From Phycisphaerae bacterium (GTDB lineage Bacteria > Planctomycetota > Phycisphaerae > JAJVII01), in assembly GCA_022072085.1 (NCBI GenBank), contig JAJVII010000043.1, positions 446 to 64,445 on the forward strand: a stretch of 64,000 nt of DNA. The letters run 5' to 3'. The notes beneath the pieces are model-generated. The model had not been told where the DNA came from. It saw nothing but the letters and a program-made list of their open reading frames with translations, and did not search any database. A program made the translations under genes and the position numbers. Shown one piece after another: positions 9,831 to 32,981 of the stretch; positions within the stretch are counted from its first letter, which is position 1; every line of letters begins with the position of its first letter.

Positions 9831-9911
9831 CCGGGACCGGCAGCCCACCTGGATAAGCCCCTTCAGGGCAGCCTGCGCTTCCTGATTATAGGAGCAGGGC
9901 TATTTCCAGGA

Positions 9912-9927
9912 TTCTTGATTATGGGAA
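9912..9927. promoter_or_regulatory. Candidate enhancer (UAS) half-palindrome TTCTTG-ATTA-TGGGAA; a second degenerate copy TTCCTG-ATTA-TAGGAG lies at 9879-9894
   Basis: Same N4-spaced architecture and TGGGAA half-site as the perfect palindromes at 15719 and 26471. It lies 50-100 bp upstream of the sigma-54 promoter at 9977. Confidence 0.4.
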
Positions 9928-9976
9928 CCGCATACATGCCAACCCGTTTTTCAGTAGCGCCAAGTGGATCCGGCAG

Positions 9977-9992
9977 TGGTACGCGGTTTGCT
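9977..9992 (+). promoter_or_regulatory. Sigma-54 (RpoN) -24/-12 promoter TGGTAC-GCGGT-TTGCT
   Basis: GG and GC are separated by the canonical 10 nt. The 16-mer TGGTACGCGGTTTGCT is identical to the one at 26623. It sits 33 bp upstream of the multiheme cytochrome start at 10025. Confidence 0.7.
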
Positions 9993-10024
9993 CTAAAGGA
10001 CACCAAGTCTATTGGGATTGATAT

Positions 10025-11491
10025 ATGGATACCGCGCGCCAACGAAAGTTGGGGCGTGCAGGACTGCTGGTCGCGGTCGGCGGGTTGTGTGTCGCCTGGT
10101 CGGTGGGGCTGGGCGCTTCGCCAACAACGGCGCCGGACGCGGCCAGGAAGCCGGACACCAAGACAGCCACTTGCACCAATCAGACCTGTCACGCCACCCT
10201 GATCTCCCGGAAGGTCACGCACGGGCCGACGGCGCAGAACAAGTGCGACGCCTGCCATGTCTATGACGAACCGCGAGAGCACACGTTCAAACTCTCAGCC
10301 CCGGCCGACAAGCTTTGTGATAATTGTCACACCCTCAAGCAACGTACCGTCGTGCACACCCCGGTGAAGATGGCTCAGTGCACCGGCTGCCACGACCCGC
10401 ACGGCTCGGACAATCGCACGCTGCTCAAGGCCGACCCCACGCGCGGGCTCTGCGAAAGCTGCCACAAGAAGGATGCGTTCATGAACCGCAAGTTCCTGCA
10501 CGGACCGGTGGCAGCCGGCGCGTGCATCCTCTGCCACGAGCCGCATTCCTCGTGGGAGCCCAAGCTGCTGATCAAGCCCAAGGACCAGCTCTGCGTGACC
10601 TGTCACGCCGACGTCGTCAAGAAGGCCGAGGCCGCGCGCTTCGTCCACGAGCCGGTCAAGAAGGACTGCGGCCAGTGCCACGACCCCCACAGCGGCGACG
10701 CGAAGTATCAGCTCAAGGAGGCGCCGCCCAAGCTCTGCCTGGGTTGCCACGCGGATGTCCGCAAGCAACTGACCGACGCCAAGGTGATTCACGGACAGGC
10801 CCCGCCGCAGAAGAACGAGGACGGCATGCCCAAGGTCGACGCCGCCGCCCACCGGGCCCAGGAGGAGGCCTTTGGCTGCCTGGGCTGCCACAGCGCCCAC
10901 GTTTCGACGCTGCCCAAACTCCAGAAAGCCGCCCAGCCGGACCTCTGCCTCTCCTGCCACAACCAGACGCTGATCGCCGCCGACGGCAGCAAGCTGACCA
11001 ACATGGCGGCCCTGCTCAAGGACAACCCCGAGCACCACGGACCCATCCGCGAAGGAAGCTGCACCGCCTGTCACCAGCCGCACGGCGCGGGGACCTTCCG
11101 ACTGCTCTCGCACGAATATCCGCAGCAGTTCTACGCCCCGTTCAAGCTGGAGAGCTACGCCCTCTGCTTCGACTGCCACATCCCCCAACTCGTGCTCGCG
11201 GAGAAGGGAACCGGGCTGACGCGGTTCCGCAACGGCGACATCAACCTGCACTGGCTGCACGTGAACCGCGAGAAGGGCCGCACCTGCCGGGCCTGCCACG
11301 AGGTCCACGCCTCCAAGCGCCCCTTCCACATCCGCGACGCAGTGCCCTTCGGCGACAGCGGCTGGATGCTGGAGATTCGCTTCGAGCAGACCACGACCGG
11401 CGGCAGTTGCGCGCCGGGCTGCCACCAGAAGCGGACGTATGACCGCGGCCAGGAGAACCTGGGTCCCCCCAAGCCGGGAGGTCTGAAATGA
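10025..11491 (+). CDS. Periplasmic multiheme c-type cytochrome (13 CXXCH plus CX3CH/CX4CH variants), doubled-CXXCH (HGP…C..CH) repeat family
   Basis: Signal peptide, then repeated …HGP(V/T)…C..CH units (CDACH, CDNCH, CTGCH, CESCH, CILCH, CVTCH, CGQCH, CLGCH x2, CLSCH, CTACH, CFDCH, CRACH, plus CAPGCH). It is a paralogue of the gene at 17361. ORFs 10295..11425(-) and 10324..11442(+) are frame artefacts. Confidence 0.85.
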   Translation: MDTARQRKLGRAGLLVAVGGLCVAWSVGLGASPTTAPDAARKPDTKTATCTNQTCHATLISRKVTHGPTAQNKCDACHVYDEPREHTFKLSAPADKLCDNCHTLKQRTVVHTPVKMAQCTGCHDPHGSDNRTLLKADPTRGLCESCHKKDAFMNRKFLHGPVAAGACILCHEPHSSWEPKLLIKPKDQLCVTCHADVVKKAEAARFVHEPVKKDCGQCHDPHSGDAKYQLKEAPPKLCLGCHADVRKQLTDAKVIHGQAPPQKNEDGMPKVDAAAHRAQEEAFGCLGCHSAHVSTLPKLQKAAQPDLCLSCHNQTLIAADGSKLTNMAALLKDNPEHHGPIREGSCTACHQPHGAGTFRLLSHEYPQQFYAPFKLESYALCFDCHIPQLVLAEKGTGLTRFRNGDINLHWLHVNREKGRTCRACHEVHASKRPFHIRDAVPFGDSGWMLEIRFEQTTTGGSCAPGCHQKRTYDRGQENLGPPKPGGLK

Positions 11492-12531
11492 GCGCCCACA
11501 GGGTCACCATCCGCCGGCCGCCCGTTGCCGCCTGGGCGACGCTGGCCGCCCTGCTCTGGCTGGCGCTGCCCGCGACGCCGGCCGGCGCGGTCACGCACCT
11601 CAAGCGCGGCGACGCCGCCGATCCCGTCGCCTTGTCCGACCTGGACGGCAAGCAGGTCAGCACCGCCGACCTCAAGGGCCGCACGCTGATCCTGGTCTTC
11701 GGCGAACTGTATCACCCCCGCACGCGCGACCTGTGCACGCAGATCGCAACGATCCTCAAGGACGGGAGGCTGGCCGACCAGAAGATCGCGTCCATCCTCA
11801 TCGTCGCCCAGGACGCCAAGCCCGACGAGCTGAAGGCCGAGATGGGCGACATCCACTGGCCGGCGATCATCCTGCACGACGCCGGCCGAAAGGCCTTTGG
11901 CGATTACCGCGTCGCGGTGCTGCCCAGCCTGGTCGTCGTCGACCCCGAGGGCAAGGTGGTGCACGCGATGGCCGGGCCGGTCGACCGGTTGGCCGACGTG
12001 CTGACCGACGCCCTGCTGCTGTCGGCGGGCAAGCTGAGCGCGGAGCGGTTCGAGCAGACGCTGCACCCCCAGCCGACGACGGCCCCCAGCGAGGAGTCCG
12101 AGCGATCGGAGCGGTTCACGCAACTGGCCCGCCAACTCGCCCGACGCGGTATGGACGACCTGGCGGCCGAGAAGTATGCCGAGGCCCTGAGCCTCGACCC
12201 CGGCCACGAGTCGGCGCACCTGGGCCTGGGCCTGCTGCTGCTGCGGCAGCGTCGGCTGGCGCAGGCCGAGGAACGCTTCCGCCTCGTGCTGTTGAGCGAC
12301 CCGCAGTCGCAGGAGGCGGTGCTGGGGCTGGCCTACGTGCAGACGCTGCGCGGGGGCGCGGAGCTGGCGGCGGCGGAGAAGTCCGTCCGCGACCTGCTGG
12401 CCAAGAGCCCGTCGCAGCCGCGGGCGCATTACCTGCTGGGGCTGATATGCGAGCAGCGCCACCAGACCGACAAGGCGGCTGCCAGTTTCAAGCGGGCAGC
12501 CGAGCTGCTGCTGGAGCGGAGCGAAGAGTGA
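11488..12531 (+). CDS. Secreted thioredoxin-fold (TlpA/AhpC-like) domain protein with C-terminal TPR repeats; lacks a CXXC active site
   Basis: Signal peptide, a thioredoxin-like core (GRTLILVFGELYHP…VLPSLVVVDPEGKVV) with a single Cys instead of CXXC, then TPR-like helices (AEKYAEALSLDPGHESAHLGLGLLL…). Translationally coupled to the upstream cytochrome with a 4-nt overlap. Confidence 0.6.
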   Translation: MSAHRVTIRRPPVAAWATLAALLWLALPATPAGAVTHLKRGDAADPVALSDLDGKQVSTADLKGRTLILVFGELYHPRTRDLCTQIATILKDGRLADQKIASILIVAQDAKPDELKAEMGDIHWPAIILHDAGRKAFGDYRVAVLPSLVVVDPEGKVVHAMAGPVDRLADVLTDALLLSAGKLSAERFEQTLHPQPTTAPSEESERSERFTQLARQLARRGMDDLAAEKYAEALSLDPGHESAHLGLGLLLLRQRRLAQAEERFRLVLLSDPQSQEAVLGLAYVQTLRGGAELAAAEKSVRDLLAKSPSQPRAHYLLGLICEQRHQTDKAAASFKRAAELLLERSEE

Positions 12532-12980
12532 TGAGCGAAACCACGCACGACCCTGCGCCCACGCACGACCGCGATGGACGGCGGACCTTCTGCAAGCTGT
12601 GCATCGGCGGGCTTTCGGTGGCGTCGGCGGCGACGGTGGCCTACCCGGTGGCATCGTTCCTGGGCATGCCGATCACCGTCGGGGCCAACAAGCCCGTAGC
12701 GGTCCCGCTGAGCAGCCTGGCCCCGGGGCAGGCTCACTACGCGGAGTTCCAGGGCCAGCAGATCGTCATCCTGTCGGACGAGGAAGGCCAGCGGGTGTTC
12801 AGCGCGTCCTGTCCGCACCTGGGTTGCAACGTGATGTGGAGCCCGGCTGACGCCCTGTTCCACTGTCCGTGCCACGGGGCGGTGTTCAACTCGCACGGGC
12901 AGGTGGTCAGCGGGCCGGTCAGCGCGTCGCTGAAGAAGGTCCCCTTCGAGGTCAAGAACGGGGTCATCATCGTTTCCTGA
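12531..12980 (+). CDS. Rieske [2Fe-2S] protein of a cytochrome bc-type complex
   Basis: Box I CPHLGC and box II CPCHGA are 19 residues apart, with an N-terminal TM/TAT-like segment. TGATG overlap with the previous gene. The ORF-track entry 11733..12980 is a spurious N-terminal extension in the same frame. Confidence 0.85.
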   Translation: MSETTHDPAPTHDRDGRRTFCKLCIGGLSVASAATVAYPVASFLGMPITVGANKPVAVPLSSLAPGQAHYAEFQGQQIVILSDEEGQRVFSASCPHLGCNVMWSPADALFHCPCHGAVFNSHGQVVSGPVSASLKKVPFEVKNGVIIVS

Positions 12981-12989
12981 GGTGCCTCC

Positions 12990-13649
12990 ATGCGTCTGCT
13001 GGGACGGATATTCGACTGGTTCGACGAGCGGTATGAGCTGACGCCGCTGATCGAGAAGAACGTCACCCACAAGCAGGTGCCGCGGACGCTGGGCTGGAGC
13101 GCCTGCTTCGGCGGGCTGGCCTTCCTCACCTTCCTGGTCCAGGTCTTCACCGGGATGCTCCTGCTGATGTACTACAAGCCGCACCCGTCGGCCGCCTGGG
13201 ACAGCGTGACCTTCATCAAGAGCAACGTGCCGATGGGCTGGCTGGTGCAGCGGATCCACACCGTGGGCGCCAACACGATGATCGTGCTGGTGTTCATGCA
13301 CTTCGCCCGGGTGGCCTACTACAAGATCTTCCGCAAGCCGCGCGAACTGCACTGGATCAGCGGCGTGGTGCTGATGCTCATTACGACGATCATGGCCTTT
13401 ACCGGCTACCTGCTGCCCTGGACGCAACTGAGCTACTGGGGCGCCAAGGTCGGCACCGAAATCCCCGGCGCCGTCCCGTGGATCGGCGAAGGCATCCGCA
13501 ACTGGGTCCGGCGCGGGCCGGCCATCAGCGGCGAAACCCTCGGCTTCTTCTTCTCGCTGCACATCTGGATCCTGCCGGCGGTCGCGGTGGCCTTCATGCT
13601 CATGCACTTCATGATGATCCGGAGGACGGGCATCTCGCGGCCGCTGTGA
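12990..13649 (+). CDS. Cytochrome b, N-terminal half (cytochrome b6-like, 4 TM, bis-His heme ligands)
   Basis: 219 aa with four TM helices, conserved His in helices B and D (…RIHTVGANTMIVLVFMHF…, …FFFSLHIWILPAVAVAFMLMHF…) and a PetB-like length. Confidence 0.85.
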   Translation: MRLLGRIFDWFDERYELTPLIEKNVTHKQVPRTLGWSACFGGLAFLTFLVQVFTGMLLLMYYKPHPSAAWDSVTFIKSNVPMGWLVQRIHTVGANTMIVLVFMHFARVAYYKIFRKPRELHWISGVVLMLITTIMAFTGYLLPWTQLSYWGAKVGTEIPGAVPWIGEGIRNWVRRGPAISGETLGFFFSLHIWILPAVAVAFMLMHFMMIRRTGISRPL

Positions 13650-13848
13650 ACGCGCATAAGAGAACGCAGGGGGGCAGAGAAGGACAGAGGGCGCAGGGAC
13701 GGAATGAACGAAGCGAAGGAAGAGCGAAAGGGACACGGAGAACACGCGGCGGGCAGAAGGAAGATGAGAATCAGGATTTCTCTGCCCGACCTCTGCCTCT
13801 CCGCCCCTCTGCGTTCCTCTTGAACTCGCCCCCAGCCGGGGCGAACGG

Positions 13849-14499
13849 ATGGAGCAGGCCATGGGCGCCGATTACAAGAAGCAATACCGGCCCGACCAGT
13901 TGGAGCCCTTCTGGCCCAACGAGATCATCAAGATGGTCGTCGTCGTGCTCTGCACGCTGGCGGTCATCATGTTCTTTGCCGTCCTGCCGGTGCTGCTGGA
14001 CATGATCGGCGTGCACGGGGCGATGCACGGCGAGGAGCCGGCCAACCCGCAGGGCGCCACGCCCGCCGGCATCAAACCCGAGTGGTACTTCCTGGCCGTC
14101 TACCAGTATCTCCGCCTGATGCCCACCGAACTGTTCGGGATCAGCGGCAAGACGCTGGGCGTGCTCAGCCAGGGGGTGGGCATCGCGGCGGTCGTGCTGC
14201 TGCCGTTCTGGTATCGCCGACGGGCTAGCCGGCGCCCGGGCTGGGTCTATCGGCTGATTGTCACCGCCGGCCTGGTGGGGTTCCTGGTACTGACGATCTG
14301 GGGCGGCTGGCCCGAGACGCAGGGCCCCGACGGCGGCGAGGAACTGATTCCCTTCAAGGACTACCTCCACCAGAAGCCGACCATGTTCATCCTGTTCGGC
14401 GTGGCCCTGGTCGTCTTCTACTTCCTGATCTGGCGCGAGCGGCGGATGATCCGCCAGGTGCTCGACGCCCCCGATCCCGGGGAAGGAGCCGCGCCGTGA
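13849..14499 (+). CDS. Cytochrome b C-terminal half / subunit IV-like (PetD-like, PEWY motif)
   Basis: Three TM helices and a PEWYFL motif (…AGIKPEWYFLAVYQYLR…). An alternative start at 13861 has a GGAG 6 nt upstream. Confidence 0.75.
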   Translation: MEQAMGADYKKQYRPDQLEPFWPNEIIKMVVVVLCTLAVIMFFAVLPVLLDMIGVHGAMHGEEPANPQGATPAGIKPEWYFLAVYQYLRLMPTELFGISGKTLGVLSQGVGIAAVVLLPFWYRRRASRRPGWVYRLIVTAGLVGFLVLTIWGGWPETQGPDGGEELIPFKDYLHQKPTMFILFGVALVVFYFLIWRERRMIRQVLDAPDPGEGAAP

Positions 14500-15431
14500 A
14501 GACTTCGATGATCCGAATGGCTGCGGTCCTGCTGGCCACCGCGCTGGCCGCCCGGACGCCCGCCCTGCGCGCCGCCGACGACGATCCGTTCGCGAACAAC
14601 GCCTGCGTGAACTGCCACCGCGACCTGCCCGGGCGCAGCAGCGAGATCGTCACCCTCGAGTGGAAACAGAGCGTTCACCACGCCGCCGGGGTCGGCTGCG
14701 ACGGCTGCCACGGCGGCGACCCCTCGGTCCGCCGCGACCAGTTCGCCATCGAGGACGACTACAAGCGGGCGGCCCACCTTCAGCGCAATCCTGACTTCCT
14801 GCTGATGCAGGACCGCACCGACCCCTTCGTCGGTCCGGTCCGAGGACGCAAGGTTTCGTACTTCTGCGGCAAGTGCCACGCCGACATCAAGGAGAAGCAT
14901 CTGGGCAGCCCGCACGGCGACTTCGGCGACCCGACCTGTCTCTACTGCCACGGGCAGGGCTCGCACAAGATCACCCACCCGACAGCCGAGGAGATCATCG
15001 ACACGCGGCCCAAGTCCGAGAACGGACGGTGCAGCCCCTGCCACCGGGCCGCAACCATGCAGGCGGTCACTACTATCAAGAAGACGCTGATCGACGCCGA
15101 GGACAGGATCCAGACCTCCGGCAATCTCTACGCGCGACTGGAGAGCTGGGGCTACCAGAACCTGGAGTTGGAGAAGCTGCACCATCACGCCCGGGAGGTC
15201 CGCTCGCAACTGCGGCAGATCTTCCACAGTTTCAACATGAGGGACATTAACAATTTCGCCTCGGAGATCGGCGACGTGGCCGATCGCACGCAGGCGACCT
15301 ATGACCTGGTCAGCAACCTGCGCCGCACCCAGCGTCGCCAGACGGTCGTCGGAGCGTCCGCCGTCGGCATGCTGCTGCTGTTTGCCGGCCTGCTGGTTTA
15401 CTACAAGCGATCGTTCCTGGATGAGCATTAG
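14496..15431 (+). CDS. Pentaheme c-type cytochrome with C-terminal membrane anchor (bc-complex-associated)
   Basis: Signal peptide, then CVNCH, CDGCH, CGKCH, CLYCH and CSPCH, with a C-terminal TM helix (VVGASAVGMLLLFAGLLVYY). ATGA overlap with the preceding gene. Confidence 0.8.
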   Translation: MKTSMIRMAAVLLATALAARTPALRAADDDPFANNACVNCHRDLPGRSSEIVTLEWKQSVHHAAGVGCDGCHGGDPSVRRDQFAIEDDYKRAAHLQRNPDFLLMQDRTDPFVGPVRGRKVSYFCGKCHADIKEKHLGSPHGDFGDPTCLYCHGQGSHKITHPTAEEIIDTRPKSENGRCSPCHRAATMQAVTTIKKTLIDAEDRIQTSGNLYARLESWGYQNLELEKLHHHAREVRSQLRQIFHSFNMRDINNFASEIGDVADRTQATYDLVSNLRRTQRRQTVVGASAVGMLLLFAGLLVYYKRSFLDEH

Positions 15432-15718
15432 GCACTGTCTGACGAATCGATCGTCGGCCTGAGAGCGAGCGAATTCGCGGCCGGCAAGGCGGCCGAAGCA
15501 GGCGTTACTCTTTCGTATCGCCGATGCAGGCCAACGCCGCCGGACGCGAATGCAGCCGCTCGGAGCCAGAGCGATTCGTCAGACAGAGCCTGGGCGAAGG
15601 TCGGCCCCGCCCTGTTTCTCCCAGCGCCACACTGCCCGCAAGGTTGCATCGCGACGCCGCGACCTTTGTGAAAAGTCGCGCGAACGTCTTGTGGCCGGGA
15701 CGACGGCGAGCGAGGAAA

Positions 15719-15734
15719 TTCCCACTTATGGGAA
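15719..15734. promoter_or_regulatory. Perfect 16-bp palindrome TTCCCA-CTTA-TGGGAA; candidate enhancer-binding-protein site (UAS)
   Basis: Exact reverse-complement half-sites with a 4-nt spacer, 50 bp upstream of the -24 element at 15785. Confidence 0.5.
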
Positions 15735-15784
15735 CCGGATGGCATAAGTTCCATCACAATGTGGCCTTACGGGGGTTGACTCGC

Positions 15785-15799
15785 GGCACGCCGTTTGCT
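15785..15799 (+). promoter_or_regulatory. Sigma-54 -24/-12 promoter GGCACG-CCGT-TTGCT
   Basis: Matches the consensus (T)GGCACG-N4-TTGCW with correct GG/GC spacing. Lies ~40 bp upstream of the NapC-like cytochrome start. Confidence 0.7.
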
Positions 15800-15837
15800 T
15801 ACCTGATGGATGATCGACGGGTGTGAAGGAGGTTTCG

Positions 15838-17364
15838 GTGCGCAAGTTGTTCAGATGGTTCTGGGCCAAGCGCCTTCGCCGCTGGGGGCTGATCGCCGGC
15901 GTGGGGCTCGTCCTCCTGTCGGTCGGCACGGTAGAGCTGACCAGCCAGAGCTGGTTCTGCAATTCCTGCCACATCATGAACACCTACTACGCCAGTTGGA
16001 AGACTTCGCCGCACAAGGACGTGGAGTGCATCCGCTGCCACATCGCGCCGGGGATGAACAACTTCGTCTCGGCCAAGCTCAACGGGCTGGGCCAGGTCGT
16101 CGATGACGTCCTGCACCGCACGAGCACCAAGCCCTCGGCGTCGGTGAGCGACATGAGCTGCACCCGCGCCGGCTGCCACGAGCAGGCGGTCGTCCAGGCC
16201 AATGACTACACCGCCGTGACAGCCGCCGCCATGTCGGCGACACAGACCCCGCCACGTGCCTACTTCTTCGACCACAGCAAGCACCTGGGGCGCGAGTATC
16301 GGGGCATCAGCATCCACTGCTCGACCTGCCACTCGCACGTCCAGGGCGACCAGCACTTCGAGGTGAACACCAACGTCTGCGTCACCTGCCACCTGTTCAG
16401 CGGGCCGGGCACGGCGCCCCAGTGGTCGGCCCCGGTGCTGTCGGTCACGACGACCCGGCCCGACGCCGCCCCCAGCAGCCAGGCCGAGCAGATCACCGGC
16501 TCGACGGTCGCCTCCCCCGACCAGGCCGTCGCCGCCCCGTCGCGCTGCAAGAACTGCCACGAGCCGCCCAAGCAACCGGTGAACTACCACGGGCTTCAGG
16601 TCATCCACGACGAGTATCTGGCCTACGGAGCGGCCTGCGAAAGCTGCCATCGCAACGTGACGGCCGCGTTCGCCACGATCGGCGACACCCAGTGCTACGC
16701 CTGTCACGACTTCGGCGCCGAGCGGATCGGCGACATCGAGGACCTCCACCGCGTCCACACCGTCGGCGAGCACAAGGTCGAGTGCTTCAGTTGCCACGGG
16801 CTGACGGCCCACGGGCCCAAGGCGGCCGCCTCGGCGCTCCAGCTCGAGCAGCTCACCTGCGGCGCCTGCCACAAGGGCCAGCACCAGATCCAGCAGACGA
16901 CTTACAAGCCCGGCGTCGAGCCGACGCCGACCCAGCCCGAGCAGGGCCACGCCCAACCCGAGCAGTCGGTCGCGGTCTCGCCGATGTTCATGGCCCACGT
17001 CGACTGCACCGGATGCCACGTCAGGCAGCAGCCGCTGGAATTCAAGCCCGACACCGGCGCGACTGTCGCGATGGCCGCGCCGCAGGCCTGCGACGCCTGC
17101 CACAAGCCCGGACTGGGCGCGTCGCAGATCGCCCTGTGGCAGAAGGCCACCAAGGCGCTCTACGAGCAGGCGGCCGCCCTGCTGCCGGCAACGCCGCCGG
17201 CGCCGGGCAGCGAGTCGGCCCGGCTGGTCGCCGAGGCCCGCAAGCTGCTGGACCTCGTGCGGCTGGACGGCTCGTGGGGCGTTCACAATCCGAAGTACAC
17301 CGAGAGCCTGCTGCTGGAGGCGATCGCCAAGCTCCGGCAGGCGTCGGCGGGAGGTGGTTCATGA
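15838..17364 (+). CDS. NapC/NirT/NrfH-family membrane-anchored multiheme cytochrome c, extended (11 CXXCH + 1 CX4CH); putative quinol dehydrogenase
   Basis: N-terminal TM helix immediately followed by CNSCH…CIRCH, the NapC/NrfH hallmark, then 9 more heme motifs. GTG start at 15838 is preceded by AAGGAGG at -6; the ORF-track start 15823 is 5 codons upstream. Confidence 0.8.
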   Translation: MRKLFRWFWAKRLRRWGLIAGVGLVLLSVGTVELTSQSWFCNSCHIMNTYYASWKTSPHKDVECIRCHIAPGMNNFVSAKLNGLGQVVDDVLHRTSTKPSASVSDMSCTRAGCHEQAVVQANDYTAVTAAAMSATQTPPRAYFFDHSKHLGREYRGISIHCSTCHSHVQGDQHFEVNTNVCVTCHLFSGPGTAPQWSAPVLSVTTTRPDAAPSSQAEQITGSTVASPDQAVAAPSRCKNCHEPPKQPVNYHGLQVIHDEYLAYGAACESCHRNVTAAFATIGDTQCYACHDFGAERIGDIEDLHRVHTVGEHKVECFSCHGLTAHGPKAAASALQLEQLTCGACHKGQHQIQQTTYKPGVEPTPTQPEQGHAQPEQSVAVSPMFMAHVDCTGCHVRQQPLEFKPDTGATVAMAAPQACDACHKPGLGASQIALWQKATKALYEQAAALLPATPPAPGSESARLVAEARKLLDLVRLDGSWGVHNPKYTESLLLEAIAKLRQASAGGGS

Positions 17365-18857: not shown

Positions 18858-19915
18858 ACTCGAAGGAGTCTGCCATGATCTCGCATCCCGTTCGACTCCG
18901 CCTCACGCCGACGCTCGCCCTGGCGTTGCTGGCCGGGCTGAGCTTCTGGCCCACCGGCGCCGTCGGCGACGATCAGCCCACCACCGCCGCCGACGACGCT
19001 CAGTGGTCAGCCAAGGACCTCGACGGCAACGCCGTCCAACTGGGCGACCCGGCCAAGCCGACCGTGCTGCTGTTCCTCATGTCGGGCCAGCCGCAGAGCG
19101 CCGACGCCCTCAAACGCGTCACCGCGTCAGTCAAGGCCCACCCCGGCGTGGACGCCGTCGCCATCGTCAGCGCCGACAAGGCCGCCGACTACGCCGCCAA
19201 GATCAAGGCCGACTGGCCCGGAAAGGTCGCCCTGGACGCCGACTACGCGCTGGCCGGTCGGTGCAACGTGCACGTCTGGCCGACCACGGTCATCCGCGTG
19301 CCCGGCGGAAAGCAACTCGCCCACATGGGCGGACTGCCCGCGTCGCTGGACAACCAGGTGGGGGCCTGGCTGGACTTCGCGACCGGCGCGATCGACGAGG
19401 CCGCGCTCAAGCGTCGGCTCAGCGGGCAGGAGGTCGTCGAGGACAACCCCGCGCAGATGGCGGCGCGGCACCTGGCGGCTGCCGACCGGCTGCTGGACAA
19501 GGGGCTGGTCGCCCAGGCGCGCGACGAGTTGGAGCGCGGGCTGAAGATCAGGCCCGCCGACAGCGCCCTCCAGCTTGCGATGGCCCGCGTGCTGCTGCTG
19601 ATGGACCAGCCGGCCGACGCGATGGCCCTGCTGGACCGGATCGACGCCTCCTCCGTCCCGCCGTGGAAGCTGGACGTGGTGCGAGGCCGGGCCCTGATGG
19701 CGATGGAGAAATGGGACCAGGCCTCGGCGGTGCTGGTCCGGGCGGTGAAGCTGAACCCCGAGCCGTCGGAGGCCTACTACGCGCTGGGCCAAATCTACGA
19801 ACACGCCCTGGACTACCGCCAGGCGGCGACGGCCTACAGGGCGGCGTTCGAGAACAGCCCCACGGGGAGGAAGCTGACGATTTCCCCGATTCCGACGACG
19901 CAGCCGGGGGAGTGA
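18854..19915 (+). CDS. Secreted thioredoxin-fold + TPR protein, paralogue of 11488..12531 (no Cys in the Trx-like core)
   Basis: ATGA overlap with the cytochrome. Same domain order as the paralogue (Trx-like core PTVLLFLMSG…VWPTTVIRVPGGKQ, then TPR helices). ORF-track 17732..19915 is an extension. Confidence 0.6.
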   Translation: MNSKESAMISHPVRLRLTPTLALALLAGLSFWPTGAVGDDQPTTAADDAQWSAKDLDGNAVQLGDPAKPTVLLFLMSGQPQSADALKRVTASVKAHPGVDAVAIVSADKAADYAAKIKADWPGKVALDADYALAGRCNVHVWPTTVIRVPGGKQLAHMGGLPASLDNQVGAWLDFATGAIDEAALKRRLSGQEVVEDNPAQMAARHLAAADRLLDKGLVAQARDELERGLKIRPADSALQLAMARVLLLMDQPADAMALLDRIDASSVPPWKLDVVRGRALMAMEKWDQASAVLVRAVKLNPEPSEAYYALGQIYEHALDYRQAATAYRAAFENSPTGRKLTISPIPTTQPGE

Positions 19916-20044
19916 AACAGTTGGCAGGCCAGGACGCCTGAAGGAGCCGCGCGGGGCGAGCCGCCGCGGTTCCTTGCATTCCGGGCGCGGCGACCTTGCC
20001 CGCGACGGCACGTTGGAGTATGACAGCAGCGAGGGTTCCACCGG

Positions 20045-21223
20045 ATGTCCAGCGGCCTGCAACAGCCTGAGCGCCCGCCGCGGCTTCGTGCGCCCGGCGC
20101 GTGGGCCCGCCGCCTGATGCTGGCGGCGATGGTCGCGGTCGTCGCGGCCATGGGGTGCAGCGATCCGCACACGCGATACAAGGTGCTCAGCTTCTTCTTC
20201 GACGGCGTGCCCGACCCCGACGCCCCGCCGGGGACCGGTCCTGAGGGCACAGGAGAAACGGCGTCGGCCGCCGCCAACGTCAAGCCGCAATTCATCCACG
20301 CCCCCTACCGCGACCGCAACTGTCTGCCCTGCCACGAGGTGGCCACGCCCCAGACCGGGCTGACGGCCAACATGACCATCTGCGGCAAGTGCCACGCGGT
20401 CTACGGGCAGTTCGGGGCCGCCGAGTGGGTCCACGGGCCGACCGCGCTGGGCCTGTGCGGGCTCTGCCACGACCCGCACAAGTCGGAATACCCGCACATC
20501 ATCAAGCAGGCGCAGCCGACGCTCTGCCTCAACTGCCACACCGATCCCAAGCTGCTGGGCGAGCCCTATCACGAGCTGGCGGCGCTGGGCAAGGCCGTCT
20601 GCTCCGACTGCCACGACCCGCACATGGCGGGCAACCGGCTGCTGCTGGTCGACGCCGGCAGCTACCAGCGGCGCAAGCCGGACCTGAAGCTGGCCAGCAC
20701 GCACCCGCCGTTCCGCGACCGCAAGTGCCAGATGTGCCACTCGGGCGACTCCAACGCGGTGCGTCCGAACCTCGTCCAGGAAGCCTGCCGGACCTGCCAC
20801 AAGAACATTCGCGAGCCGAGCGGCCCGAACGAGAAGGTGCACCCGGCGCTGGCCCAGGACAAGTGCCTGAACTGCCACGAGCCGCACCAGTCGACGCGGC
20901 CGCACCTGATCCGCCCGACGGCCCAGGAGATCTGCATGACCTGCCACAAGGTCGAGCAGATCAGCGGGCCGGCGCATCCGCCGGTGGTGCGGGTCGACTG
21001 CCTGCTCTGCCACCAGGGACACGAATCGACGCGGGCGCACCTGCTGCGCCGCGGCGTGCCGATCGCCGGGGAGAAGGTTCCGCCGGTGGAATGGCTGGAG
21101 GAGCCCGGACGCCCGCCGGCCAACCTGGAAACGACGCCACCCACGACGCAGCCGACGACGGCGGAAGATGACGCCGCGCCGGCGCCCGGAACGGGGCCGA
21201 CCCCCGCAGGACCCCAGCCGTGA
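20045..21223 (+). CDS. Decaheme c-type cytochrome, probable lipoprotein (candidate periplasmic or OM component of a porin-cytochrome conduit)
   Basis: Signal/lipobox-like AAMGCS, then CLPCH, CGKCH, CGLCH, CLNCH, CSDCH, CQMCH, CRTCH, CLNCH, CMTCH, CLLCH, and a Thr/Pro-rich tail (TTPPTTQPTT). Confidence 0.8.
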   Translation: MSSGLQQPERPPRLRAPGAWARRLMLAAMVAVVAAMGCSDPHTRYKVLSFFFDGVPDPDAPPGTGPEGTGETASAAANVKPQFIHAPYRDRNCLPCHEVATPQTGLTANMTICGKCHAVYGQFGAAEWVHGPTALGLCGLCHDPHKSEYPHIIKQAQPTLCLNCHTDPKLLGEPYHELAALGKAVCSDCHDPHMAGNRLLLVDAGSYQRRKPDLKLASTHPPFRDRKCQMCHSGDSNAVRPNLVQEACRTCHKNIREPSGPNEKVHPALAQDKCLNCHEPHQSTRPHLIRPTAQEICMTCHKVEQISGPAHPPVVRVDCLLCHQGHESTRAHLLRRGVPIAGEKVPPVEWLEEPGRPPANLETTPPTTQPTTAEDDAAPAPGTGPTPAGPQP

Positions 21224-23238
21224 TGCGCTCGGCGCGTTGGATCTTGGGACTGGCGGGAGCGCTGGCGGCGGCGGCGTGGCCGGCGACAGCGCGGGCGGCC
21301 GAGCCCGACGCCGGTCCGGTCCAGATTGTGCCGCTCAAGGTACTGACGCGCAGCGGCAACCTGTACGTCCGCGGCAGCATGAAGCAGAAGAAGGAGACGT
21401 TCGGCGGCGGCAGCGACTCGAACCAGAAGGACACGTACCTCGAAGAGGGTGTCGACTTGCAGTCCACCGGATACATCTATCACCCCAACCTGATGGAGTG
21501 GTTCGCCGCCTTCCGCCTGGGGCTCACCCAGCAGCAGATTGACCTGAACGAAACGCAGGAGAAGTTCCGCGGCACGCTGCTGGGCTTCGACCTGTCGGGC
21601 CTGCTGCTCCAGAAGAAGCGCGTCTCCGCGCGGGTCTTCGCATCGCGGACGCAGAACCAGGTCGACCGCAACTTCGCCGCCCGCCTGGAGGTCATCCAGA
21701 GCCGCTTCGGCGTCGAGCTGATCCGCCGGGGCAAGTTCCCCATCACGCTGCTGCTGGAGCAACTGGGCCTGACCGAGAAGGACGAGCAGCGCAACGACGA
21801 CCAGACCAGCCGCCACGCCCGGTTCACGGTCAGCGACCAGCGGAACTCCGACCATTTCACCGAGCTGATCCTGGACCTGCTGGACGTGACCGAGACGATC
21901 ACCAACATCGGCGACACGACCAGCACGACCGAGGACGCCTCCTACCGACAGCTCGAGGCGCTGCTGAACACGGTGCACCGGTTCGGGTCGGGGACCGAGA
22001 AGAACCGCTTCGCCGCGTCGGGGCGACTGCGCGACCGCACGGGGTACTTCCCCGAGCGCGAAATGGACCTGGACGCGTCGCTGGACCTGGTCCACAGCCC
22101 GACGCTGACCAGCTTCTACCACGCCGCTTACCACGACAACCGCACCGACACGGACCAGGACAAGACGACGACGCTGGACGCCGGTTTCGCCAAGCAGATT
22201 TACGAGAGCCTGAACATCGCCGGGCGCGGGAACTGGACCAGCTCGCAGTTCATCGGCGGGACGCAGAAGATCGTCGGCCTGTTCACCGACCTTCAGTACC
22301 ACAAGAAGACGCCCATCGGCCCGTACACCAGTCAGTTGTCGCTGGGCTGGCAGCGCGAGCAGGAGCAGAACGCCGGCAGCACGCGCGTCGTCCGCGACGA
22401 GTCTCACACGCTGGACGACGTCACGTTCACCCAGCTCATGCAGGCCAACGTCATCTCCGGGACCGTCCAGGTCACCAACGCCGACCACACGCAGACCTAC
22501 GTGCTGGACAGCGACTACGAGCTTCAGACGACCGGCGCCTTCACCGAAATCCGCCGTAAGACCACCGGCGACATCGCCGCCGACCAGGCGGTGCTGGTCA
22601 CCTACTCGATCGCCGTCGCCGGAGACTCGACCTTCGACACGACCACGCTGACCTGGAACAACCGGCTGGCCCTGGAGAAGGTTCCCCTGACCCCTTACTA
22701 CAACATCCACCGCCGCGCCGACAAGCTGACCGGCGGGCAGGACCCCGGCAACCTGGACACCCAGACCACGCAGTTGTTCGGACTGCAACTGGACTGGAAG
22801 GGCCTGATCGTCAACGTCGAGCATGAGACCCGCGATCAGATGCTCTACCCCTCCTCGGTCGCCGACCGCGTCCGCGCCCGTTACCAGCACCGCCTCACCC
22901 GCGACGCCGACCTGTCGCTGGGCGGACTGATCGAGAAGCTGACCTACGACAGCGCCGCCCGCTACAACCTGGGTCCCAACGGCGACCGCCTGGACACCAC
23001 GACCGCCTTCGCCCGCACGACGATCCGGCTGCGCAACTCCCTGCTGCTGCGGCTGTCGGCCGACTACATCAAGACCCAGGGCCGCACCAACGACGAGCGG
23101 GCCGAGTTCAAGGGCCAACTGGAATGGAACTACCGCAACATCGAGCTGTCGGTGGAAGCGCGGCAGAACTTCTATCAGCACGAACAGAACAAGGGCAACG
23201 AACAGGCGATCCTCTTCTCGATCAAGAGGAGGTTCTGA
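21220..23238 (+). CDS. Outer-membrane beta-barrel protein (MtrB/OmbB-like porin candidate)
   Basis: Cleavable signal peptide (…AAAWPATARAAEP). 672 aa rich in T/S/N/Q/D/R/Y with alternating amphipathic stretches, and a C-terminal …AILFSIKRRF ending in Phe, the classic OMP signature. ATGA overlap with the decaheme gene. The 952-aa ORF 20662..23520(-) is its antisense artefact. Confidence 0.6.
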   Translation: MMRSARWILGLAGALAAAAWPATARAAEPDAGPVQIVPLKVLTRSGNLYVRGSMKQKKETFGGGSDSNQKDTYLEEGVDLQSTGYIYHPNLMEWFAAFRLGLTQQQIDLNETQEKFRGTLLGFDLSGLLLQKKRVSARVFASRTQNQVDRNFAARLEVIQSRFGVELIRRGKFPITLLLEQLGLTEKDEQRNDDQTSRHARFTVSDQRNSDHFTELILDLLDVTETITNIGDTTSTTEDASYRQLEALLNTVHRFGSGTEKNRFAASGRLRDRTGYFPEREMDLDASLDLVHSPTLTSFYHAAYHDNRTDTDQDKTTTLDAGFAKQIYESLNIAGRGNWTSSQFIGGTQKIVGLFTDLQYHKKTPIGPYTSQLSLGWQREQEQNAGSTRVVRDESHTLDDVTFTQLMQANVISGTVQVTNADHTQTYVLDSDYELQTTGAFTEIRRKTTGDIAADQAVLVTYSIAVAGDSTFDTTTLTWNNRLALEKVPLTPYYNIHRRADKLTGGQDPGNLDTQTTQLFGLQLDWKGLIVNVEHETRDQMLYPSSVADRVRARYQHRLTRDADLSLGGLIEKLTYDSAARYNLGPNGDRLDTTTAFARTTIRLRNSLLLRLSADYIKTQGRTNDERAEFKGQLEWNYRNIELSVEARQNFYQHEQNKGNEQAILFSIKRRF

Positions 23239-23239
23239 G

Positions 23240-24310
23240 ATGAACGCAACGAGAGTCGGACAACGCGCCCGGCGGCGCGGAGCGATCCGGATAACGCTGC
23301 TGGCGGCGGCGCTGCTGGCCGTCGCCGGGACGTCGGGCGGCTGCAAGCCCAACGAGCCGCCGCAGATTCTCCGCACCTGGCCCGCGACCGGCACGCCGCG
23401 AATCGTCCTGCGCAAGGTCATCCACGGAGCCCAGGACGTCGAGCCGCAGACCGGGCTGGCGGCGTTCATCCGCAATCTGGCCGGCCCGACCAAACAGGTC
23501 ATCCGCCGCCCGCAGGGCATCGCCGTGGACGACCGCCGGCGGCTGTTCGTCGTCGACCAGGAGAACCAGGGCGTTCACGTCCTGGACCTGGACAAGGGCG
23601 AGGTGCATTTCATCGACCGGGCCGGCAAGACGGCGTTCGTTTCGCCGGTGGCGGCCGCCTGGTGCGACGGCAAGCTGGCCGTCTCCGACAACGCCCTCAA
23701 GCAGGTCTTCTGGCTGGACGCCTCCGGCAAGCTGCTGGGGACGGTGAACGCGCCGGGCGGGTGGCGTCGGCCGACCGGACTGGCGTGGGATTCGACGTCG
23801 CACGAGCTTTACGTCGTCGACACGGTCACCGACGAGGTGCTGGTGTTCGGCGGCGACGGGCAACTGGTGCGGAAGTTCGGCCAGCCGGGGACCGGCCCGG
23901 GCCAGTTCAACGCCCCGACGCACCTGTCCGTCGCGCCCGGCGGGCCGGTGCTGGTGGCCGACTCGCTGAACTACCGCATCCAGCTTCTGGACCGCACGGG
24001 CAAGCCGCTGCTGGCGATCGGCAAGCAGGGCGACGCCAGCGGGCACATGGGCCTGCCCAAGGGCGTGGGCATCGACGCGCTGGGCCATCTCTACGTGGCC
24101 GACTCGGGCCTGGCGGCGGTGCAGATATTCGATCAGAAGGGCGACCTGCTGCTGGGCGTCGGCGAGCGAGGCAGCGGCGTGGGGGAGTTTGAAATCCCCA
24201 CGGGAATGGCTGTGCGCGGTAACATGATCTATGTCAGCGACTACTTCCTCAGTCGCGTCCTGGTGTTCGAATACGTGGGCGGGGAGGATGACCATGAACA
24301 GGCTCAGTAA
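23240..24310 (+). CDS. NHL-repeat beta-propeller lipoprotein
   Basis: Lipobox (AGTSGGC), then six NHL-like blades (…LYVADS…, …PTGLAWD…, …PTHLSVAPGGPVLVADSLNYRIQLLD…). Confidence 0.75.
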   Translation: MNATRVGQRARRRGAIRITLLAAALLAVAGTSGGCKPNEPPQILRTWPATGTPRIVLRKVIHGAQDVEPQTGLAAFIRNLAGPTKQVIRRPQGIAVDDRRRLFVVDQENQGVHVLDLDKGEVHFIDRAGKTAFVSPVAAAWCDGKLAVSDNALKQVFWLDASGKLLGTVNAPGGWRRPTGLAWDSTSHELYVVDTVTDEVLVFGGDGQLVRKFGQPGTGPGQFNAPTHLSVAPGGPVLVADSLNYRIQLLDRTGKPLLAIGKQGDASGHMGLPKGVGIDALGHLYVADSGLAAVQIFDQKGDLLLGVGERGSGVGEFEIPTGMAVRGNMIYVSDYFLSRVLVFEYVGGEDDHEQAQ

Positions 24311-25985
24311 TTTCGACTTCAGCGTCCGGATCGCGGCCTGGGCGATCTGCCTGCTGCTGCCGACGGCCCTGTCGGCGCAGGACTTCAGCAAGGTGGCCAA
24401 CACCAAGCACAACCTGACGGCCAGCGGACCCGGTCCAATCAAGGTGGCCGGCGCCGGCGAGGTCTGCTACTTCTGCCACACGCCGCACTCAGCCAACCCG
24501 ATCGCGCCGCTGTGGAACCGCCAGACCAACGGCCAATACTACGACGTCTACGGCAGTTCGACGATGAAGGCCGAAGTGCCCCAGCCGACCGGCTCGTCGC
24601 GGCTCTGCCTGAGCTGCCACGACGGGACCATCGCCCTGACGCAGACCTACAACCCGCGGGTCTCGTTCCAGGGGACGATCTACATCACCCCGCAGGACTC
24701 GGGCTATCTGGGCACGGACCTGCGCGACGACCACCCGATCAGCTTCGTCTACGACCAGGGGCTGACTACGCGCGATCCGCAGCTCCGTGACCCGCTCACG
24801 CTGCCCAAGCAGCTCCCCCTGGACGCCGAGAGCCGCGTCCAGTGCACCACCTGCCACGACGCCCACGACGACAGCCTGGGCTTCTTCCTGCGCATGGACA
24901 ACCGCGAGTCGGCCATGTGCGTGAGCTGCCACAACGTCACCGGCTGGACCGCCTCGGTCCACGCGACCTCGGGGCAGGCCGTCCCCGCCGGCAGCGGCAA
25001 GTGGGGCAACCTCACCTACGGCACCGTGCGCGAACTGGCCTGCGAAGCCTGCCACCGCCCCCACACTGCCGGCGGACGCGCCCGGCTGCTTCGCTACCAA
25101 GCCGAAGAGGACAACTGCCTGGACTGCCACGACGGCTCGGTCGCCACCAAGAACGTCTCAAGCGAGCTGACCAAATTCGGCTCGCACCGCGTCAGCCAAT
25201 ACATCAACATCCACGATCCGGCCGAGGATCCGGCGACGATGTCCGAGCACGTCGAATGCGCCGACTGCCACAACCCCCACCAGATGACGGCCACGGGCTC
25301 GGCGTCCGCGCCCAACATCAAGCCCACGATGAAGGGGGCCTCCGGATACACGCGCTTCGGCGCCTCCGTCTCGCCGGCCAACTACGAGTACGAGGTCTGC
25401 TACAAGTGCCACGCCGTGCGCAACCCGGCGACGCCGGTGGTTGACCGCGTCGATCACGACAACAACATCGCCAACGAACTGGACCCCGGCAACGTGAGCT
25501 ATCACCCCGTCGTCGCCCAGGGCCGCAACTCCAGCGTGCCCAGCCTCATCCTTCCCTGGCGGACCACGAGCATGGTCTACTGCACCGACTGCCACGGCAG
25601 CGACGGCAACACGGTCAAGGGCCCCCACGGCTCGGCTTTCTCTCCCCTGCTGGTCAAGAACTACGACTACCACGACCCCTCCAGCGAGTCGCCGCAGGCC
25701 TACGCCCTGTGCTACACCTGTCACAACCGCGACAGCATCCTGGCCAACCAGAGCTTCTCCGAGCACAACCGGCACGTTGCCGAGAAGAAGACCTCCTGCG
25801 CGATCTGCCACGACCCGCATGGCTCGCGGACCAACAAGTTCATGATCAACTTCGACCGCACCGTCGTCACCGCGACCTCCGGCGGCCAGGGACCGACCTA
25901 CACCAGCACGGGCTTGCGCAGCGGCACCTGCACCCTGCGCTGCCACAACGTCGATCACAACAACAAGGCCTACCCCGATCACTGA
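24294..25985 (+). CDS. Secreted multiheme c-type cytochrome (11 CXXCH + CX3CH), candidate extracellular or outer-surface cytochrome
   Basis: Signal peptide (…LLLPTALSAQD), then CYFCH, CLSCH, CTTCH, CVSCH, CEACH, CLDCH, CADCH, CYKCH, CTDCH, CYTCH, CAICH and CTLRCH. GGGAGG lies 7 nt upstream of ATG 24294, which overlaps the NHL gene by 17 nt. Confidence 0.8.
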   Translation: MNRLSNFDFSVRIAAWAICLLLPTALSAQDFSKVANTKHNLTASGPGPIKVAGAGEVCYFCHTPHSANPIAPLWNRQTNGQYYDVYGSSTMKAEVPQPTGSSRLCLSCHDGTIALTQTYNPRVSFQGTIYITPQDSGYLGTDLRDDHPISFVYDQGLTTRDPQLRDPLTLPKQLPLDAESRVQCTTCHDAHDDSLGFFLRMDNRESAMCVSCHNVTGWTASVHATSGQAVPAGSGKWGNLTYGTVRELACEACHRPHTAGGRARLLRYQAEEDNCLDCHDGSVATKNVSSELTKFGSHRVSQYINIHDPAEDPATMSEHVECADCHNPHQMTATGSASAPNIKPTMKGASGYTRFGASVSPANYEYEVCYKCHAVRNPATPVVDRVDHDNNIANELDPGNVSYHPVVAQGRNSSVPSLILPWRTTSMVYCTDCHGSDGNTVKGPHGSAFSPLLVKNYDYHDPSSESPQAYALCYTCHNRDSILANQSFSEHNRHVAEKKTSCAICHDPHGSRTNKFMINFDRTVVTATSGGQGPTYTSTGLRSGTCTLRCHNVDHNNKAYPDH

Positions 25986-26470
25986 CGCCGGGTCGCCGCG
26001 GCAAGGCCCTGATGACATCGCAGTCGCACTTTGCCCCCGGAGCGAGGCTGCATAGCGGGGTCTTCAGAACCTGCCGATCCGTTCCCGCGATGGGTTCCTG
26101 GGATGTCGCCAATCTCGAAATTGGGACAGGGGGAACTGGGTTTGGTGGATGCAAAGAAGGCAGAATGTAAAAATAGGGAATCCTGACAGCCTGGCCGTTG
26201 CCTGTTCGCATCCTCGCCCGTTGTCTGGCTGACGCATATCACCCAATTCGGGCAATTCTCCCCGGCGCCGTTTTCGTGATGTTCACGCCACGCATCATCG
26301 CCCCGATTAGCCGGTAATCATCCCCGCAACGCCCTCAGACCCCCATCGGCTGCCGGGATGCCTCGGATCGCCCTGAGCAGCCGGGCAAACCGCACCGCGT
26401 AAGCTCCATTACAGATTTGGACGCCTCGGCCCTTTCGCTCGCGGACGCTGGGCGTGGCCGACTGTCTGAA

Positions 26471-26484
26471 TCCCATTTTTGGGA
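26471..26484. promoter_or_regulatory. Palindrome TCCCA-TTTT-TGGGA; candidate UAS for the sigma-54 promoter at 26623
   Basis: Same half-sites and N4 spacing as 15719-15734, ~140 bp upstream of the -24 element. Confidence 0.45.
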
Positions 26485-26622
26485 CGGGTCGGAGGCGGGG
26501 AAAACCAATTTCGGAAAAGGTCGCGTGAAGCTGGGAAGACCTTGTCGGACATGCCTGTGGGCAAGTGTTCAAAGGGGCTCAGTTTGTGGCTTTTTCGGGG
26601 AAATCTACCCGAAAACGGCCTC

Positions 26623-26638
26623 TGGTACGCGGTTTGCT
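26623..26638 (+). promoter_or_regulatory. Sigma-54 -24/-12 promoter TGGTAC-GCGGT-TTGCT (identical 16-mer to 9977)
   Basis: Exact 16/16 identity with the promoter at 9977, 145 bp upstream of the first tetraheme gene. Confidence 0.75.
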
Positions 26639-26783
26639 ACATACTCCTTGTAGATCGGGGAAACGCCCCCTCCGATCAGGAGACTGACAGATGATGATGC
26701 GACCGGCTGAATATCGCAGGACCCGCGTGGGTGGCGGCGGCCAGGTTCATCAGGGCAACGGTCAGCCAACTAGGAGGTGTCTT

Positions 26784-27437: not shown

Positions 27438-27583
27438 TCGACGCCCAGGGTTCTTAACCGCCGGCCTCGGCCGGCCGACATGGAGAGATGACGATGAACC
27501 TGGTTGAAAACAAGACGGCCAACATGGAAGGCAGCAGCCAGGCTCATCTGATCCGCGAAATGACTTTGAACAGGAGGTGTCTT

Positions 27584-28210: not shown

Positions 28211-28251
28211 CAGTGATCGGCAGGCGACCTGACTCGCACCCTTGATCCCCC

Positions 28252-28290
28252 GGGCCGCAGGCGGTCACCCCGCCTGCGGCCCTCTTCTTT
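28252..28290 (+). terminator. Rho-independent terminator (GGGCCGCAGGCGG-tcacc-CCGCCTGCGGCCC followed by TCTTCTTT)
   Basis: A 13-bp perfect GC-rich stem and 5-nt loop with a T-rich tract, 42 nt after the stop of the second tetraheme gene. Confidence 0.7.
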
Positions 28291-32962: not shown

Positions 32963-32981
32963 CGACGGAAGGAAGCGACCC

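Follow-up and report, generated by a model that had tools for sequence, protein, structure and literature searches.

What activates the cytochrome operons that lie behind sigma-54 promoters in a member of the Phycisphaerae? The question is raised by a 64,000-nucleotide stretch of contig JAJVII010000043.1 (hereafter the window, G+C 68.7%), in which sigma-54 promoters are accompanied by copies of one inverted repeat, TTCCCR-(A/T-rich N4)-YGGGAA (hereafter the dyad). Judged from the sequence, this dyad is probably the enhancer, or upstream activating sequence (UAS), of the NtrC-type activator encoded at 3648-5132 of the same window.

The pattern TGGYAY-N5-TTGCW occurs five times in the window, against 0.08 expected. 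With CGGCACGCCGTTTGCT at 15784 included, the window holds six sigma-54 promoters, which are all intergenic, carry the GG at -24 and the GC at -12 of TGGCAC-N5-TTGCW, and, P3287 apart, face a recognisable gene. They are named here after their first coordinate:

3287..3302 (-), P3287, TGGCACGCGGTTTGCA, divergent to the activator promoter
3530..3545 (+), P3530, TGGCACGCCGTTTGCT, promoter of the activator gene
9977..9992 (+), P9977, TGGTACGCGGTTTGCT, -24 box TGGTAC
15784..15799 (+), P15784, CGGCACGCCGTTTGCT, -24 box CGGCAC
26623..26638 (+), P26623, TGGTACGCGGTTTGCT, -24 box TGGTAC
30117..30132 (+), P30117, TGGCATGCCGCTTGCA, promoter of the cytochrome c maturation (ccm) operon

In five of the six, 25-105 bp separate the GC of the -12 box from the start codon. 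The dyads found upstream are given below, with registers relative to the first base of the -24 box and scores taken from a position weight matrix (PWM):

3410..3425, TTCCCGCAAACAGGAA, whose start is at -120 relative to P3530 and -123 relative to P3287, PWM score 18.5
3442..3457, ATGCCAAATGTGGGAA, a weaker dyad starting at -88 from P3530, 32 bp from the 3410 dyad
9879..9894, TTCCTGATTATAGGAG, the distal dyad of P9977, starting at -98
9912..9927, TTCTTGATTATGGGAA, the proximal dyad of P9977, starting at -65, 33 bp from the 9879 dyad
15719..15734, TTCCCACTTATGGGAA, starting at -65 and ending 49 bp before the -24 box of P15784, the best site of the window
26470..26485, ATCCCATTTTTGGGAC (with TCCCATTTTTGGGA at 26471-26484), starting at -153 from P26623, of moderate score
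29964..29979, TTCCCGGGTCTAGGAT, starting at -153 from P30117
29997..30012, GTCTCAGGGGTGAGAC, starting at -120 from P30117, of low score and an uncertain call

A first-pass annotation of the window had reported four of these dyads, and all four are present within 1 bp of the positions it gave. The 15719 site, which it described as a perfect 16-bp palindrome, is perfect in its 6-bp arms only, the 4-bp spacer (CTTA) being asymmetric. The 9879 and 9912 dyads lie 50-98 bp before the TGGTAC at 9977, and the end of TCCCATTTTTGGGA is 139 bp from the TGGTAC at 26623. Three features had been overlooked: the divergent P3287(-)/P3530(+) pair flanking the activator gene, with two dyads between the promoters; the dyad at 29964 in the ccm promoter region; and a tandem architecture of 32-33 bp in which the registers -65, -98 and -153 are re-used. 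Register -65 is common to P9977 and P15784, where both sites end in the same 12 bp, TTATGGGAACCG, and register -153 is common to P26623 and P30117. The centres of the two half-sites of TTCCCR-N4-YGGGAA are 10 bp apart. Relative to the -24 box, the sites as a whole are only loosely in helical phase, and this phasing was not used as evidence.

One explanation of the recurrence is chance in intergenic DNA that is richer in A and T. The pattern as originally proposed, TTCCCA-N4-TGGGAA, allowing up to three mismatches, has six matches in the 1,107 bp upstream of the six promoters. First-order Markov simulations of the same 1,107 bp gave a mean of 0.62 matches, and none of 5000 composition-matched simulations reached six. 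The whole window contains 10 matches at this stringency, fewer than the 15.2 found in shuffles, as chance would allow, and the scores of the weaker sites are in the range of the best random hits; however, six of the 10 matches stand upstream of the six promoters. We also searched 24 promoter-upstream regions for every inverted dyad of 5-mers, with spacers from 0 to 12. The top dyad, TTCCC-N6-GGGAA, was found in 12 of the 24 regions, twice the maximum of six obtained after shuffling, and the next-ranked ones were TCCCA-N4, TCCCG-N4 and TCTCA-N4. Since the independent loci described below argue in the same direction (binomial p=3.7e-11), chance is refuted as an explanation and we leave it next to no probability.

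A PWM built from sites outside the window only ranks 15719, 9912, 3410 and 9879 as the top four 16-mers of the window, with scores of 17.5-21.1. The sites at 26470, 29964 and 3442 were accepted mainly because their register and spacing fit. Three other PWM hits are not credible as enhancers, one at 36076 inside the repeat-rich spacer between ccmA and ccmB, one at 26112, which is 511 bp upstream of P26623, and one at 47123, which has no sigma-54 promoter nearby.

Related loci were retrieved by exact-protein look-ups, and six homologs of the NapC-like cytochrome (loci L091-L096) were picked only on the length of the surrounding DNA. In Fontivita pretiosa, the genes for the activator, a periplasmic binding protein, a HAMP protein and a kinase stand before the same multiheme/thioredoxin-TPR/Rieske/cytochrome b operon as in the window, with 58% identity for the multiheme cytochrome and 45% for the binding protein. 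All six NapC-like homologs adjoin binding-protein or HAMP/kinase genes, and four of the six also adjoin the activator gene. The activators of the syntenic loci are 66-78% identical to that of the window.

Nine related loci (171 kb) were scanned for strong sigma-54 promoters and for TTCCYR-N4-YRGGAA. The promoter scan used a stricter score, a looser sigma-54 scheme having proved too noisy and been dropped. Eight of the 13 dyads with at most one mismatch fell in the 2% of the DNA that lies upstream of strong promoters, which gives the binomial probability quoted above. As control DNA we used 80 unrelated loci (L002-L081, 1.35 Mb, distant activators of other phyla among the matches listed), and in these no dyad was found upstream of any of the 87 promoter-like sites. 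The sites of the related loci are as follows:

L091, P9938: dyads at -97 and -65
L091, P4405: dyads at -88 and -56
L092, P9997: dyads at -107 and -74
L092, P20366: dyad at -121
L094, P21108: dyads at -96 and -64, common to the divergent P20927(-)
L094, P7399(-) and P7547(+): one dyad for both, at -65 and -98
L093, P9534(-), promoter of the activator operon: dyad at -54
L095: dyad at -107 and a site with three mismatches near -74
L087: dyad at -66
Fontivita pretiosa: GTCCCGCAAACGGGAA, 133 bp before a weaker promoter

All sites start between -54 and -155 from the -24 box. Tandem pairs 32-33 bp apart occur at P3530, P9977, L091 (twice), L092 and L094, and, less certainly, at L095 and P30117. The locus of the closest NapC-like homolog (L097, 59% identity) carries TTCTCAGTTATGGGAA at exactly -65 from CGGTACGCGGTTTGCT. 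The symmetrised consensus of 20 sites reads TTCCC(A/G)-wwww-(T/C)GGGAA, with T2, C3, G14 and A15 conserved at 95-100%.

These loci also bear on the idea that the dyad is a remnant of promoter-region duplication, or a dispersed intergenic repeat, and not a protein-binding site. The 12 bp that P9977 and P15784 share in the same register could be read in this way, the intergenic regions of the window are rich in short repeats and heptamer arrays, and GTCTCAGGGGTGAGAC shares the core TCAGGGGT with three other intergenic repeats. However, the dyad recurs where the proteins are only 50-80% identical and the flanking promoter DNA has diverged. In an ungapped alignment of four promoters, the main conserved blocks are the dyad and the -24/-12 boxes, with isolated invariant columns only elsewhere. 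The dyad is symmetric, its spacing is fixed, and it is absent from coding DNA and from the control loci, while the level of protein identity argues against recent horizontal copies of one element. A repeat origin is thus largely refuted, and we give it only a very small probability.

The protein that probably binds the dyad is encoded in the window together with a putative sensory system:

3648..5132 (+), NtrC-type response-regulator enhancer-binding protein (receiver domain, AAA+ domain with GAFTGA, HTH_8); an alternative start is possible at ATG 3591, preceded by AAGGAG
5219..6235 (+), PhnD-like periplasmic binding protein, a putative ligand sensor
6365..7390 (+), membrane HAMP protein that matches HisKA weakly and lacks an ATPase domain
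7707..9056 (+), histidine kinase (HisKA and HATPase_c), presumably the activator's partner

All features that define an NtrC-class bacterial enhancer-binding protein (bEBP) are present in the activator, which has no named equivalog. Its receiver domain matches Response_reg (3.1e-32) and has the phospho-acceptor Asp and the conserved Lys, with DLVLSDVRMPEMDG and LLKP invariant in 14 orthologs; its central domain matches Sigma54_activat (9.8e-67), and its translation shows Walker A, Walker B and the GAFTGA loop (GESGTGKE, LFLDEI and GAFTGA); its C-terminus carries a Fis-type helix-turn-helix (HTH) domain (HTH_8, 1.5e-12). All the NCBIfam equivalog cut-offs were missed (AtoC 448.6 vs 714 bits, NtrC 405.3 vs 558.6, PEP_resp_reg 385.6 vs 502.6, ZraR 374.3 vs 760, GlrR 352.7 vs 763), and therefore names such as 'AtoC' and 'PilR' are generic labels only. 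An NCBI entry from a Phycisphaerae MAG is identical to the activator protein. Orthologs are 66-80% identical, those of Tepidisphaeraceae metagenome-assembled genomes (MAGs) and of Fontivita pretiosa 73-80%, and their HTH is almost invariant (YDK-ETAK-LGIGVSSLYRKL).

We assign the dyad to this activator because it is the only DNA-binding protein found in more than one of the seven syntenic loci, of which five include its gene in the DNA retrieved. Dyads accompany the promoter of the activator gene in three loci, namely the window, L093 and L094, and the two dyads of its divergent promoter region in the window imply autoregulation. The suggestion made in the first pass, that the sites form one motif belonging most plausibly to the activator at 3648-5132, is thereby strengthened, since the own-promoter dyads, the synteny, the conserved registers and tandem spacing and the near-invariant HTH all point to the same protein. 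The dyad also has the sequence properties expected of an enhancer, namely an inverted repeat with half-sites one helical turn apart, positions in the UAS range (roughly 80-200 bp from the start site), tandem sites and conservation together with the regulator.

Alternatively, the dyad could be functional and yet bound by another protein, either another sigma-54 activator, with its gene elsewhere in the genome, or a dimeric global regulator (of the CRP/FNR type, or a repressor), the local activator using a different sequence. A 5/6-N4/6-5/6 dyad with half-sites one turn apart would suit many dimeric HTH regulators, three activator orthologs (L083, L084 and L098) have no dyad nearby, and our view covers 64 kb of the genome. 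Against this, no motif other than the dyad was recovered from the DNA upstream of the promoters, and sigma-54 promoters require an enhancer-bound activator; apart from the activator, no DNA-binding protein is seen in more than one syntenic locus, and the activator carries dyads in its own promoter. The tandem spacing of 32-33 bp and the location ~84-174 bp upstream of the start are enhancer-like and not operator-like, and the conservation of the HTH matches that of the motif. We therefore consider another binding protein unlikely, although clearly less so than a repeat origin.

Several points weigh against assigning the dyad to the local activator. The link between motif and protein rests on synteny, the autoregulatory sites and HTH conservation, and the genome's other sigma-54 activators lie outside the 64-kb window. 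The sites at 26470 (13.4), 29964 (11.4) and 3442 (11.3) score like the best hits in shuffled sequence. In the related loci, 6 of 18 strong promoter-like sites have no dyad with up to two mismatches, including P6355 of L096 and P13202(-) of L082. The activator orthologs of L083, L084 and L098 stand in other contexts, with no dyad or clear sigma-54 promoter nearby, so that, if the motif belongs to them, their targets would be in other places; for footprinting they give no information. Moreover, the pattern TTCCYR-N4-YRGGAA was refined with the window sites already known, and although the tests on ortholog loci are independent of the window, a few of these loci had been inspected by eye before the pattern was formalised. 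Apart from these points, a metagenome scan with a two-sequence multiheme alignment gave only five loci, and one of them, L086, has a sigma-54-like promoter and isolated TGGGAA half-sites but no full dyad.

The ccm promoter had been set apart in the first pass as carrying a different palindrome instead of the dyad, possibly for a second regulator. This is not supported, as a dyad is present at -153 and GTCTCAGGGGTGAGAC lies exactly 33 bp downstream of it. The TCTCA/TGAGA half-sites of GTCTCAGGGGTGAGAC recur in orthologous sites and are present in L091, L093, L094 and L097; standing in the tandem position, GTCTCAGGGGTGAGAC may represent a second, degenerate dyad. Its assignment is uncertain because its PWM score is low (7.2) and its core, TCAGGGGT, is common to three other intergenic repeats. 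In any case, a separate regulator at the ccm promoter is not needed.

In bEBPs, UAS sites are bound by pairs of DNA-binding domains, and looping then reaches the sigma-54 RNA polymerase (PMC7175178). The sequences themselves show the motif, its enrichment, its architecture and its conservation with synteny; the binding protein, the signalling steps and the activating effect are inferred, by analogy with NtrC-class activators, and would combine as follows. The PhnD-like protein, the HAMP protein and the histidine kinase (5219-9056) would sense a signal and phosphorylate the receiver domain of the activator, whose Fis-type HTH dimers would occupy the dyads, the 10 bp between half-site centres being one helical turn. 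As the tandem spacing of 32-33 bp corresponds to three turns, paired sites would be on the same face of the helix. The AAA+ domains would assemble into an oligomer, which DNA looping would carry to the sigma-54 RNA polymerase at -24/-12, and ATP hydrolysis would open the promoter. The centres of the dyads are ~84-174 bp upstream of the predicted start sites. This distance, the half-site and tandem spacings, the dyads common to divergent promoters and the sites at the regulator's own promoter all agree with the use that bEBP dimers make of UAS sites.

The predicted regulon would include the activator gene (P3530) and the divergent transcript (P3287), together with a Rieske/cytochrome b/multiheme complex (P9977), a NapC-like/multiheme/NHL operon (P15784), a small-multiheme/NHL operon (P26623) and the Ccm heme-attachment system (P30117). 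The genes concerned, and others beside them, are:

788-2674 (-), 2-oxoacid:ferredoxin oxidoreductase
10025..15431 (+), P9977 operon: multiheme cytochrome c, thioredoxin/TPR protein, Rieske protein, cytochrome b, cytochrome b C-terminal subunit and multiheme cytochrome c
15838..25985 (+), P15784 operon: NapC/NirT-like multiheme cytochrome, multiheme cytochromes, TPR protein, 672-aa protein of no assigned function, NHL propeller and multiheme cytochrome
26691..29623 (+), P26623 operon: two small multiheme cytochromes and an NHL propeller
30175..37763 (+), P30117 cytochrome c maturation operon: ccmE, ccmF, two genes of no assigned function, ccmA, ccmB and ccmC
37934-43289, further cytochromes

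The operon at 10025-15431 encodes a bc-type complex, with a cytochrome b of the PF00033/PF00032 type and the Rieske protein alongside. The start of ccmE was placed at 30175 because the longer open reading frame (ORF) starts upstream of P30117. Downstream of P3287(-), itself a perfect sigma-54 promoter, there is no recognisable gene in ~590 bp (2675-3262), the ORF at 2789-3262(-) being without a Pfam match and the region without an Rfam hit; the first gene beyond this gap is that of the 2-oxoacid:ferredoxin oxidoreductase. In some relatives, the place beside or divergent from the activator or binding-protein gene is taken by a YgbA_NO gene and a radical-SAM gene. No Rfam family reached the gathering threshold anywhere in the window.

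Other observations concern these promoters and genes. An inverted repeat, TTTTCGGG-N8-CCCGAAAA (26593-26616), lies 6 bp upstream of the -24 box of P26623; it might serve a second regulator as its operator, or have a structural role. A search by eye for IHF sites between enhancer and promoter revealed an AT-rich tract at P30117 but no convincing WATCAA-N4-TTR. The sensory proteins show an unusual split into a four-helix-bundle/HAMP protein (6365-7390) and a separate multi-pass kinase (7707-9056), an arrangement kept across all syntenic loci, and the kinase orthologs of L082, L093 and L095 have a 6TM_PilS-like region. The 672-aa protein (21220-23238) sits between the multiheme cytochromes and the NHL propeller, a position kept in L092 and L094. 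It has no Pfam domain, and its sole, weak NCBIfam match, to a phage tail tube model, is under the cut-off; it might be the outer-membrane part of a cytochrome conduit.

Tandem heptamer arrays such as (AGAGTGC)n occupy intergenic gaps, several of them inside operons, with the reverse complement (GCACTCA)n shortly downstream. They are found at:

6222-6297 and 6326-6352
7405-7429 and 7678-7708
9716-9800
35970-36095
36926-37037
46326-46375

The paired arrays could form long hairpins in the transcript or in the DNA, and they look like a dispersed repeat class of the source genome.

In two of the related loci, the activator/HAMP/kinase operon runs on into ResB (L093 1000-9460, -; L094 1-7278, -), followed by CcsA and hemB in L093 only. 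Since ResB/CcsA belong to system II, whereas the dyad-bearing Ccm genes of the window are system I, regulation seems to have stayed linked to heme attachment in spite of the different maturation systems. Genes of the NO-induced YgbA_NO family and radical-SAM/SPASM genes are divergent from the binding-protein gene in L082 (12775-13202), L091 (1-804) and L095 (4719-6457). In Fontivita pretiosa, a strong sigma-54 promoter, TGGCACGGCTTCTGCA, precedes the YgbA_NO/radical-SAM genes, and no dyad was found there. Such neighbours hint at a branch of the regulon concerned with nitrosative stress or heme.

If the dyad is the enhancer of this activator, a compact and searchable code would allow the full regulon to be read from any Phycisphaerae genome or MAG, which would be useful for annotating respiration in this class. 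Cytochrome maturation, the bc-type complex and putative electron conduits would be tied to one signal, and the PhnD-like binding protein would be the place to seek it. Fontivita pretiosa is a named species with a 5.5-Mb genome record and the same arrangement, and the prediction is therefore directly testable. A wider proposal, which we put forward tentatively and at somewhat less than an even chance, is that the circuit is class-wide in Phycisphaerae: a PhnD-like sensor, a HAMP protein, a kinase and an NtrC-type activator would use one enhancer code as a sigma-54 switch for a whole respiratory module. This module would comprise a quinol-oxidising Rieske/cytochrome b complex, NapC-like and multiheme/NHL conduits, which could carry electrons outward, and cytochrome c maturation, by Ccm in the window and by ResB/CcsA in L093 and L094. 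Such a circuit would be a planctomycete counterpart, with a broader regulon, of the BccR system considered below, and it would offer a way to approach a possible metal or extracellular respiration of a poorly cultured class.

Our literature searches gave no description of a sigma-54 activator's cis-regulatory motif or regulon in Phycisphaerae, nor of this one in Planctomycetota, and no account of how the multiheme cytochrome clusters of Phycisphaerae are controlled. The proposed mechanism is that of a classical NtrC-style enhancer and is mechanistically unsurprising, but it has not been described before for Phycisphaerae. In mechanism, the closest model is NtrC (NR-I) at glnAp2 of E. coli and Salmonella, a response-regulator bEBP with the same receiver, AAA+ and Fis-type HTH domains. 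Its enhancer is likewise a dyad of 16-17 bp with half-sites one helical turn apart, two strong sites lie three turns apart ~100-140 bp upstream of the sigma-54 promoter, and NtrC also regulates its own operon. At glnAp2 the two NtrC sites have their centres near -140 and -108, and those of P3530 compute to about -139 and -107. In contrast, the NtrC motif is TGCACC-N5-GGTGCA whereas that of the window is TTCCCR-N4-YGGGAA, and the protein falls below the NtrC equivalog cut-off, as given above. Unlike NtrC, it is accompanied by a PhnD-like protein, a HAMP protein and a kinase as sensor and not by NtrB/PII, and its predicted regulon comprises respiratory cytochromes and not nitrogen assimilation. 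AtoC, ZraR and PilR, the names given by automatic annotation, share the domain architecture, and AtoC (448.6 bits) is the best NCBIfam similarity, with ZraR at 374.3; these scores are far under the cut-offs, and no ato, zra or pil genes are found around the activator.

By function, the nearest parallel is the BccR-CbcBA system of Geobacter sulfurreducens (BccR being GSU0598), in which a response-regulator sigma-54 activator adjoins a bc-type cytochrome operon and is required for its induction, the linkage being conserved in relatives; an enhancer is not mentioned (10.1101/2021.04.15.440034). Here too, a sigma-54 response regulator stands beside a bc-type operon with conserved linkage, the parallel being drawn from the function described. 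The two systems differ in phylum and in their cytochrome b, which in the window is of the b6/petB plus petD plus Rieske type and not of the CbcB type. A further difference is that, in the window, several operons, the Ccm genes and the regulator itself carry the dyad.

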